DNA of 34,472 nucleotides, from the UHGV virus genome UHGV-0176895. One strand, given 5' to 3'. This DNA is from a virus. Both the position numbers and the translations under genes were made by a program. Shown in pieces: positions 4,987 through 5,626 of this stretch. Position 1 is the first letter of the stretch. Every line of letters begins with the position of its first letter. The notes under the pieces were generated by a model. The model was not told where the DNA came from. It did no database searches and saw only the letters and a program-made list of their open reading frames with translations.

Positions 4987-5220
4987 ATGCTGACGAAAGA
5001 ACCATCATTTGCATCGCTGCTGGTAAAACAAAGCCCGGCAATGCACTACGGTCACGGCTGGATTTATTTACCTTGTGGGAAAAAGTGGCATCCAAGTTTT
5101 GAATTACAACCCCGGCAACAGGCTTACCGGGGAAGAAATAAAAAGCGATTCCTACAAAGATTTATGGTTAACGTGGCAAACAACCTGCGAACCAAGCGAA
5201 AAGTTTCTCTTGGAAGCTGA
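4987..5220 (+). CDS. Small basic early protein, 77 aa, in the position of 186 fil/dhr
   Basis: ATG at 4987 with GAGGTG upstream, overlapping the cII stop. Overlaps ORF 5075..5278 in another frame and the 3' end of the minus-strand ORF; coding status uncertain. Confidence 0.35.
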   Translation: MLTKEPSFASLLVKQSPAMHYGHGWIYLPCGKKWHPSFELQPRQQAYRGRNKKRFLQRFMVNVANNLRTKRKVSLGS

Positions 5221-5626
5221 GGTTTACATCGTCAACCCGACCGCAGGCAATAGCCGCTCGTTTGTAAGCTGGATTTAACAAAGAACCGAATGTTGTGGAG
5301 TCAGAGTGATGCAAAGTTTTCAATTTTTGTGCAATGAACTGTGGAGACAATTCATCCTCGGCGTAAAGCAACTCACCATATTGTCGGCTTTGTACGCTTG
5401 CTCGTTCCGCGATAATAGCTGGTTGCCATACAAGTTGGATTGTTGCGATTACAACAACAGGAAAAGCGAACAACCATTCCAGACCTGTATTAGCAAATAC
5501 AGCGGTTCCGCTTATAAGTTGGATTGCTGTCATTAATTTATCAGCTCGACCATGGAACGTTGCTGTCATTAGTTCAAGGTAATAACAGTAGTGCAATTGG
5601 AAGTATTCGGAGCTTTGTTTAGTCAT
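5168..5626 (-). CDS. Hypothetical protein, 152 aa, opposite strand within the early region; hydrophobic core segment
   Basis: ATG at 5626 with TAGGAA 5-6 nt upstream. Hydrophobic stretch LEWLFAFPVVVIATIQLVW. The 5280..5640 region is visibly AT-richer than its flanks. Antisense to the early operon, so uncertain. Confidence 0.3.
   Translation of the reverse strand: MTKQSSEYFQLHYCYYLELMTATFHGRADKLMTAIQLISGTAVFANTGLEWLFAFPVVVIATIQLVWQPAIIAERASVQSRQYGELLYAEDELSPQFIAQKLKTLHHSDSTTFGSLLNPAYKRAAIACGRVDDVNLSFQEKLFAWFAGCLPR
5421..5535. repeat. Imperfect direct repeat of about 31 bp (5421..5451 and 5504..5535), sharing the core AAGTTGGATTG
   Basis: GGTTGCCATACAAGTTGGATTGTTGCGATTA versus GGTTCCGCTTATAAGTTGGATTGCTGTCATTA, spaced 84 bp. 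Either an internal protein repeat of the minus-strand ORF or iteron-like sites. Confidence 0.4.

Follow-up and report, generated by a model that had tools for sequence, protein, structure and literature searches.

A mobile two-gene cassette of temperate phages pairing a proline-rich micro-ORF with a predicted SLATT-like membrane protein

Organization of the locus

The locus described here lies in UHGV virus genome UHGV-0176895, a stretch of 34,472 nucleotides (nt) that is referred to below as the window and that represents a Fels-2/186-type E. coli prophage (Felsduovirus-like) integrated beside rcdA. Two open reading frames (ORFs) are found on the minus strand of its early region: a gene of 152 amino acids (aa) at 5168-5626, which starts with ATG and is predicted to encode a two-helix inner-membrane protein, and, directly upstream of it, an unannotated proline-rich micro-ORF of 26 codons at 5636-5716 (MSDSDNFHVLPRPAPAPKPEPGQDKK, followed by TAG). 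Judged by comparison with related genomes, the two genes form a mobile accessory cassette (moron), and the pair travels through unrelated temperate-phage backbones. The 152-aa gene has the Shine-Dalgarno sequence AGGA 7 nt 5' of its ATG, and the micro-ORF has AAGGAG at 5724-5729 (minus strand), also 7 nt before its ATG; both were read from the sequence. The TAG stop codon of the micro-ORF overlaps the AGGA of the 152-aa gene (5634-5638, minus strand), and the distance from this stop to the ATG of the larger gene is 9 nt.

The 152-aa ORF is convergent with the rightward genes cII (4470-4979) and fil (4987-5220), the latter being the 5' neighbor of the cassette on the rightward strand, and it overlaps the 3' end of fil by 53 nt. 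Its G+C content (0.431) is modestly lower than that of the early region (0.498) and of the window (0.512). A first-pass annotation of the window had reported this ORF with exactly these coordinates, together with a plausible ribosome-binding site (RBS), a position against the rightward early region, and an AT-richer composition, all of which were borne out; the upstream micro-ORF was missing from it.

Coding status of the 152-aa gene

The counterpart of the region in Fels-2 is approximately 82% identical at the DNA level. Over the 152-aa ORF, the window and Fels-2 show 84 differences, of which 17, 3, and 64 fall at codon positions 1, 2, and 3, respectively, and the estimated rates of nonsynonymous (dN) and synonymous (dS) substitution are 0.054 and 1.43 (dN/dS, 0.038). 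All 8 differences within the 53 nt shared with fil are synonymous for the 152-aa protein, and the same 8 alter 7 of the last 17 residues of Fil. The end of the 152-aa gene overlaps the sequence for the C-terminal tail of Fil (5168-5220) in this cassette-linked allele, and this tail evolves freely. Homologues with identity down to 68% were found in Salmonella, Kosakonia, Yersinia, Hafnia, and Pectobacterium, and every full-length member of this core clade of six enterobacterial genera is 152 aa long. The protein also matches phrog_6315, a family of unknown function, over its full length (2e-76). On the pattern of substitutions, the 152-aa ORF is a genuine protein-coding gene under strong purifying selection.

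The Fels-2 record (NC_010463; locus L001) omits the minus-strand gene and contains a plus-strand hypothetical coding sequence, STM2733.1 (135 aa; 3031-3438 in L001), which corresponds to about 5306-5713 (plus strand) of the window. The first-pass annotation had named a conserved plus-strand gene spanning this region as the finding that would speak against the minus-strand ORF, and STM2733.1 seemed to be such a gene, but its frame is intact only in Fels-2 and is broken by 3-6 stop codons in the other five of the six homologues. STM2733.1 was therefore rejected as a gene and is regarded as a shadow ORF, and the Fels-2 reference annotation is, on this comparison, on the wrong strand here.

Internal repeats

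Two copies of a direct repeat of about 31 bp had been described in the first-pass annotation within the 152-aa ORF. The direct repeat is real, but it spans 23 nt with 19/23 identity (5429-5451 and 5513-5535), with 84 nt, or 28 codons, from start to start. It includes the exact 11-mer AAGTTGGATTG, which by itself could arise by chance in the window (two or more matches in 22 of 100 shuffles); a 19/23 match within the 152-aa ORF was obtained in none of 300 codon shuffles. The two copies share one codon phase and encode the peptides LMTAIQLIS, in the first predicted transmembrane segment (TM1), and VIATIQLVW, in the second (TM2). A second repeat of 15 nt, 12 nt of it exact (5524-5538 and 5560-5574), results in LMTA being encoded twice. 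Each helix contains one invariant glutamine (Gln36 and Gln64).

It had also been suggested that the ORF might be spurious and the repeats iteron-like protein-binding DNA sites. The failure of codon shuffling to produce the 19/23 repeat and the annotation of Fels-2 on the opposite strand would fit such a reading. Iterons are recognized as at least three regularly spaced, DNA-conserved repeats near an origin or Rep gene, and what was found here is two copies, in phase and encoding similar TM peptides, inside a gene whose minus frame has a dN/dS of 0.04 and whose plus frames are interrupted by stops in five of the six homologues. Because the identity between copies decays to 12-16/23 in the homologues while both peptides are retained, the repeat is not considered an iteron, and the probability of this alternative is close to nil. 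The repeats are real in the window sequence but are explained by similarity at the peptide level and are not DNA sites.

The proline-rich micro-ORF

A Shine-Dalgarno-like element precedes the micro-ORF in all homologues, and the stop codon together with the bases that follow it (TAGGA or TAAGGA) makes up the Shine-Dalgarno sequence of the main gene. This arrangement of a stop plus GGA or GAGG is found in all clades, with a gap of 8-16 nt (6 nt in locus L023). Comparison of the window micro-ORF with that of NGF1 gave 3, 0, and 11 substitutions at codon positions 1, 2, and 3 (dN/dS, 0.10), and comparison with those of Hafnia and Yersinia gave 7, 3, and 16. The consensus of the Pectobacterium, Hafnia, and Yersinia peptides is M-A-D-x-E-D-F-H-V-L-H-R-P-A-P-x-P-x-P-E-P. 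Judging from these substitutions, the micro-ORF is protein-coding, conserved, and under purifying selection.

A proline-rich micro-ORF precedes the ATG of the main gene at every readable locus inspected in Enterobacterales, Pasteurellales, Aeromonadales, and Vibrionales; the exceptions in this survey are one locus with a 50-aa upstream ORF containing TPPP and one locus masked by Ns. In the other clades that carry a micro-ORF, the main proteins are 24-40% identical to the window protein. The C-terminus of the peptide reads ...SHVPPRPTPQPKPR in lambdoid prophages of Pasteurellaceae, ...GRIPREAPPPPAPSPQPSQP in a P2-like viral contig, and ...QVPYRPAPAPRPPEKP, ...QVPYRPTPAPKPKK, or ...QVPYRPTERQPEPEPKK in a third clade consisting of 14 viral contigs and enterobacterial genomes. 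The corresponding ends are ...GRIPRQPAPPPPKQPQR in Pseudaeromonas, ...HMPVRQRPPAPPKED in Pseudescherichia, ...NYPRKQPPPPPPQRPPQS in Photobacterium, and ...HVPRNVRPPEPPKNPQPKQEN in Rahnella. The size of this partner ranges from 22 to 40 aa across the family, and its shared core consists of a hydrophobic residue, proline, zero or one residue, an invariant arginine, and a proline-rich run, with variable flanks on the N- and C-terminal sides. This core may resemble insect proline-rich antimicrobial peptides such as pyrrhocoricin (YLPRPTPPRP). None of six micro-ORF peptides that were looked up in a collection of 15 billion proteins was present, which indicates that gene callers have not reported them.

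Only the TAG and three codons separate the micro-ORF from the 152-aa ORF in the clade of the window, and both use one reading frame, so that readthrough would fuse them. A general role for fusion by stop-codon readthrough was rejected, since other clades have gaps of 8, 10, 14, or 16 nt and their two ORFs are out of frame.

The pair may alternatively be read as a toxin-antitoxin or addiction module, in which the proline-rich peptide would be the labile antitoxin of a membrane toxin, and which would stabilize the prophage or fire upon shut-off of host translation. The order of the genes, with the small ORF first and tightly coupled to the membrane protein, is like that of antitoxin-toxin operons, and the better conservation of the motif compared with the rest of the peptide is what a binding epitope would show. 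Against this, none of the longer family members was found to have the peptide fused to its main protein ("Rosetta stone"), the peptide lacks a DNA-binding or other fold, and no known toxin-antitoxin family was matched; this alternative is considered quite improbable.

Two Pasteurellaceae prophages have another small proline-rich ORF 3' of the main gene (...YQPKRPTPPPKK in L014, 5468-5665; ...YRPKNPTPPPKK in L020, 5496-5678), and this ORF is followed by a conserved hydrophobic ORF of 30 aa (FLPI[TI]NLFQIFKE). The two ORFs suggest a second unit of micro-ORF plus membrane peptide.

Control region and transcription signals

The conserved block upstream of the micro-ORF starts at about 5815. An extended -10-type element, TGGTAGACT (TGnTAnAnT), is located within it at 5768-5776 (minus strand), approximately 45 nt before the micro-ORF ATG. 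TGGTAnAnT is present in all six enterobacterial sequences (window, Fels-2, NGF1, Pectobacterium, Hafnia, and Yersinia), with T, G, T, A, A, and T invariant, and a leftward transcription start is predicted near 5761. In the cassettes of Pasteurellaceae, the corresponding position is occupied by TTGTAT-17-TATAAT. In L014 (about 4860-4920) these hexamers are bracketed by a 9-bp direct repeat, GCGACTACA, and approximately 100 bp further upstream of the Pasteurellaceae promoter are nearly invariant between Haemophilus and Pasteurella phages. A sigma-54 reading of TGGTAGACTGTTTGC was rejected by eye, since the alignment shows no conservation of the -12 GC element.

Two inverted repeats are conserved in this region. 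The first, GCCGGG-N14-CCCGGC (5788-5813), is centered approximately 40 nt upstream of the predicted start, and its arms co-vary (GCCGAG/CTCGGC in Hafnia and ACCGGG/CCCGGT in Yersinia). The second, with arms at 5771-5782 and 5726-5739, was predicted by RNAalifold as a helix with compensatory changes and overlaps both the -10 element and the micro-ORF Shine-Dalgarno sequence. Both have similar folding energies on either strand, so that they may act in the DNA, the cassette mRNA, or the early transcript. A terminator-like hairpin with 9 pairs, 6 of them G-C, and a weak T-run is found at 5110-5132 (minus strand), inside fil and 36 nt past the stop codon of the 152-aa gene; a scan of Hafnia yielded no equivalent. 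Scanning of 4000-7000 for known RNA families detected none, the single match being a sub-threshold CRISPR-DR located elsewhere.

Mobility and distribution

Relative to relatives that lack the cassette, the inserted module extends over approximately 5065-5845. RE-2010 can be aligned with the window up to GGCTGGAT at about 5064 and again from the start of the DUF5347 gene (5846-6187, plus strand). In the close relatives RE-2010 and Cartapus the cassette is absent and fil leads directly into DUF5347, and Fels-2 has the cassette; presence and absence are thus seen at one and the same position, as for a moron. The NC101/NGF-1 prophage has a second, different copy of fil right after the cassette (L004, 4745-4987), and approximately 60 bp of the fil 5' end are duplicated at the right edge of the module in NGF1. 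This arrangement is a recombination scar.

The cassette was found in 63 of 5426 complete E. coli genomes, on the chromosome every time. Among isolated phages, only Fels-2 and a Yersinia phage carry it, and its occurrence on plasmids is very rare. In 186-like prophages the slot is after cII, in convergent orientation, and in the P2-like contig it is just before gene A. In lambdoid prophages the cassette occupies the cI/early-left region, beside GmrSD and HEPN genes, a GAPS4-type nuclease gene, or an RNase T-like gene; in Rac-like/lambdoid prophages it is located beside a cI-type repressor, AbiH, or an nSTAND nucleoside triphosphatase (NTPase) gene; and a further slot is between Q and holin. Its orientation is usually opposite to that of the flanking lytic genes.

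The first-pass annotation had proposed a small membrane moron, and this proposal is upheld by the purifying selection in the gene's own frame, the constant length of 152 aa in six genera, the absence from RE-2010 and Cartapus, and the promoter-like element upstream. The cassette resembles morons such as bor and lom of lambda in its presence or absence at a fixed position, its putative promoter, its terminator-like hairpin, and a G+C content somewhat lower than that of its neighbors. It differs from them in that, in 186-like phages, it lies in the early operon and not in the late/tail region, and in that it consists of two ORFs that are probably linked in translation.

A regulatory role within the phage has also been weighed, in which the leftward transcript would act as an antisense RNA or by transcriptional interference on fil, cII, and the early operon, biasing the choice between lysis and lysogeny, and the proteins would be secondary. 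The convergence with the early operon, the overlap with the fil 3' end, and the equal folding of the two conserved inverted repeats on the early-strand RNA are in its favor. It is difficult to reconcile with the strong purifying selection on both protein sequences, with the occurrence of the cassette in unrelated backbones with different neighbors, sometimes in co-directional orientation, and with its dispensability in close relatives, and we regard it as very improbable.

Protein family and predicted fold

With clustering at 50%, the profile search yielded 170 representatives, almost all of them 150-165 aa long; two members, P0024 and P0020, used as queries found no viral loci. The window protein was assigned to no family in Pfam, NCBIfam, or PADLOC, and the family as a whole has no Pfam assignment. 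Transmembrane segments were called by a Kyte-Doolittle filter (17-residue window, mean greater than 1.3). TM2, placed at about residues 51-72, lies in a segment (about 49-73) that passes this filter; TM1, at about residues 31-46, does not and was placed from helix 6-44 of an AlphaFold 2 (AF2) model. The hydrophobic hairpin noted in the first-pass annotation is consistent with these two segments.

The AF2 model was built from a 51-sequence alignment, an earlier one from 11 close sequences having been too weak (predicted local distance difference test [pLDDT], 65), and reached a pLDDT of 82.6 and a predicted template-modeling score (pTM) of 0.73. It contains helices at residues 6-44, 50-87 (with a kink at W67-Q68-P69), 95-106, 114-128, and 138-146. 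In this model the main protein is a helical hairpin of two transmembrane segments with flanking N- and C-terminal cytoplasmic helices, for which we infer an N-in/C-in topology.

Foldseek comparison of the model with BFVD placed proteins named SLATT or "SMODS and SLOG-associating 2TM effector" at ranks 2, 3, 6, 10, 11, 13, 17, 23, and 31, with probabilities of up to 0.96 and TM-scores of about 0.5. When 100 family members were compared with PADLOC models, 9 matched the 2TM effector model PDLC00712 (best, 2.7e-4) and 3 matched the reverse-transcriptase-associated SLATT model (RTasSLATT); the family consensus matched the same two models at 5e-4 and 3.7e-3, respectively, over TM2 and the following helix. 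One relative is labeled SLATT family 5 by its database source. The protein resembles SLATT effectors in its size (about 150-180 aa), its 2TM hairpin with cytoplasmic flanking helices, its best named structural neighbors, its weak but repeated profile matches, and its phage and defense setting. It differs from them in that no nucleotide-generating or reverse-transcriptase partner adjoins it, the constant partner being the proline-rich micro-ORF, and no description of such a partner was found for SLATT systems. The obligatory micro-ORF partner appears to be new, and the prophage membrane moron or SLATT-like effector is a kind that is already known.

Two further membrane-protein families were considered. 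The sieB gene of lambda and P22 encodes a small membrane protein, is oriented against the flow of the early operon, and is expressed from the prophage, where it aborts superinfecting phages. The Pasteurellaceae and Rac-like homologues of the 152-aa gene occupy an equivalent slot in the cI/early-left region, and SieB is not known to have a proline-rich upstream ORF. SieB (PF14163) was matched neither by the window protein nor by the family consensus, and it is absent from the list of 25 families for the 100 members. The one holin match, Holin_BhlA with the consensus, was non-significant (E = 0.088), and the gene is located in the early region on the opposite strand and not in the lysis cassette.

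Genomic setting

An identical stretch is present in E. coli GPEC60-12-649, where RefSeq labels the minus-strand ORF a hypothetical protein. Leftward genes in the window include int (691-1743, minus strand), a PD-Lambda-1 defense gene between int and cI (1827-3503, minus strand), and cI (3524-4120, minus strand), which is followed by apl. On the rightward strand, DUF5347 is followed by DUF2732, TraR/DksA, and dam genes and by replication gene A (7566-9980, plus strand).

The PD-Lambda-1 gene has a low G+C content and encodes 558 aa that match the PD-Lambda-1 anti-phage protein (PADLOC, 1e-119). It occupies the int-cI hotspot, at which other copies of the prophage have either DUF4276 with an AAA ATPase or a KAP NTPase. 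A second low-G+C insert (about 0.31) is located 3' of gene A and a DinI-like gene at 10873-12237 (plus strand) and encodes 454 aa with a long coiled coil and two hydrophobic helices. This protein has no Pfam family and only coiled-coil-type matches in PADLOC, and it is possibly another accessory or defense gene.

Proposed function and mechanism

The cassette is proposed to be a lysogen-expressed membrane exclusion or abortive-infection module in which the membrane protein is translationally coupled to the micro-ORF, a function that we infer and to which we give about an even chance. A leftward transcript of approximately 650 nt would start from an extended -10 promoter belonging to the cassette and run counter to the rightward early lytic operon. 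It would be expressed in the lysogen, while CI silences the early promoter, and would be damped by convergent transcription during lytic growth; transcriptional interference is established for the 186 pR/pL pair. Ribosomes would first translate the micro-ORF and terminate on the Shine-Dalgarno sequence of the main gene, so that the output of membrane protein would be coupled to, and throttled by, slow transit through the proline-rich codons. For the conserved arginine-plus-proline core, the site of action could be the exit tunnel, or the core could serve after release as a polyproline-II ligand; the released peptide may also bind the membrane protein. The SLATT-like protein would insert with both termini inside and oligomerize via its glutamine-bearing helices, and upon a trigger the inner membrane would be compromised, resulting in abortive infection or superinfection exclusion and protection of the lysogen population. 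A membrane-disturbing role seems the most likely because of the analogy with SLATT and other two-helix effectors and because of the neighboring defense genes.

Short leaders rich in proline codons (mgtL and mgtP) and arrest peptides (SecM and the RAPP-type ApdA and ApdP) offer a parallel for the micro-ORF, which is likewise a short ORF with a conserved arginine and then prolines near its C-terminus, directly before a membrane-protein gene. It differs from them in lacking an N-terminal signal or TM segment, in a motif unlike RAGP or RAPP, in that consecutive prolines are not universal, and in that no attenuator or RBS-sequestering structure was found at the cassette.

Several results weigh against the proposed module. 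With respect to the fold, no PADLOC model matches the window protein itself, and the Foldseek E-values for the SLATT likeness are weak (0.05-3 overall and 0.15-3 for the named hits), none being significant. The PDB searches were non-specific and retrieved no solved SLATT structure. The Pfam SLATT models gave no significant match to the window protein or to the consensus, and 1 of the 100 members matched SLATT_4 at E = 0.04. Since Pfam SLATT models are unmatched and the PDB results non-specific, the protein is called SLATT-like and regarded as a candidate member of the superfamily. No SMODS, SLOG, TIR, or reverse transcriptase neighbor was found at the loci with gene calls or neighbor scans, although nucleotide-signaling partners typify SLATT systems, and the cassette of 186-like phages lies away from the int-cI defense hotspot.

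With respect to expression, a two-hexamer promoter scan found no promoter at the locus. RNA structure prediction for 11 loci showed no consistent pairing of the main RBS, and because no conserved structure sequesters this site, it is the spacing alone that argues for translational coupling. Between the proline motif and the stop codon there are 1 to 8 residues, depending on the locus, and not every peptide has consecutive prolines, which weakens a model of precise stalling. A literature search (STM2734, SLATT with prophage or upstream ORF, Fels-2/186 antisense genes, and proline-rich leaders) returned nothing on the cassette.

The same protein could instead act in non-lethal superinfection exclusion, as a constitutive membrane protein that blocks the entry of phage DNA in the manner of P22 SieA, T4 Imm, or HK97 gp15, with the micro-ORF only setting its level. 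Its small size, its predicted location in the inner membrane, its carriage by prophages in accessory slots, and its lack of a sensor domain and of an enzymatic partner agree with such a role. In fold and profile matches the hints are of SLATT-type two-helix effectors, and those of known systems are suicide effectors; the conserved control region and coupled micro-ORF suggest a need for tight control. On balance, non-lethal exclusion is judged unlikely.

It is suggested with reserve, as a rather doubtful conjecture, that the pair represents a phage-borne immunity or exclusion module of a type not recognized before, with the micro-ORF as the control element of a SLATT-like pore. The micro-ORF would serve either as a nascent-chain sensor of the cell's state of translation, responding to perturbation of EF-P, prolyl-tRNA, or the ribosome upon infection, or as a released polyproline-II peptide that gates the membrane protein, and would take the place of the nucleotide second messengers or reverse transcriptases by which known SLATT effectors are controlled.

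Implications

The comparisons settle the annotation conflict at the Fels-2 locus and remove the false lead of the iterons. The two-gene module spans temperate phages of at least four gammaproteobacterial orders, and its smaller gene was previously unannotated. If the module is a true exclusion or abortive-infection system, it would add a compact two-gene prophage defense of approximately 650 bp. If the proposed control also holds, the cassette would provide a tractable case of a toxic two-helix effector that is controlled without a dedicated sensor protein, and a rare conserved bacterial micro-ORF with a recognizable motif.

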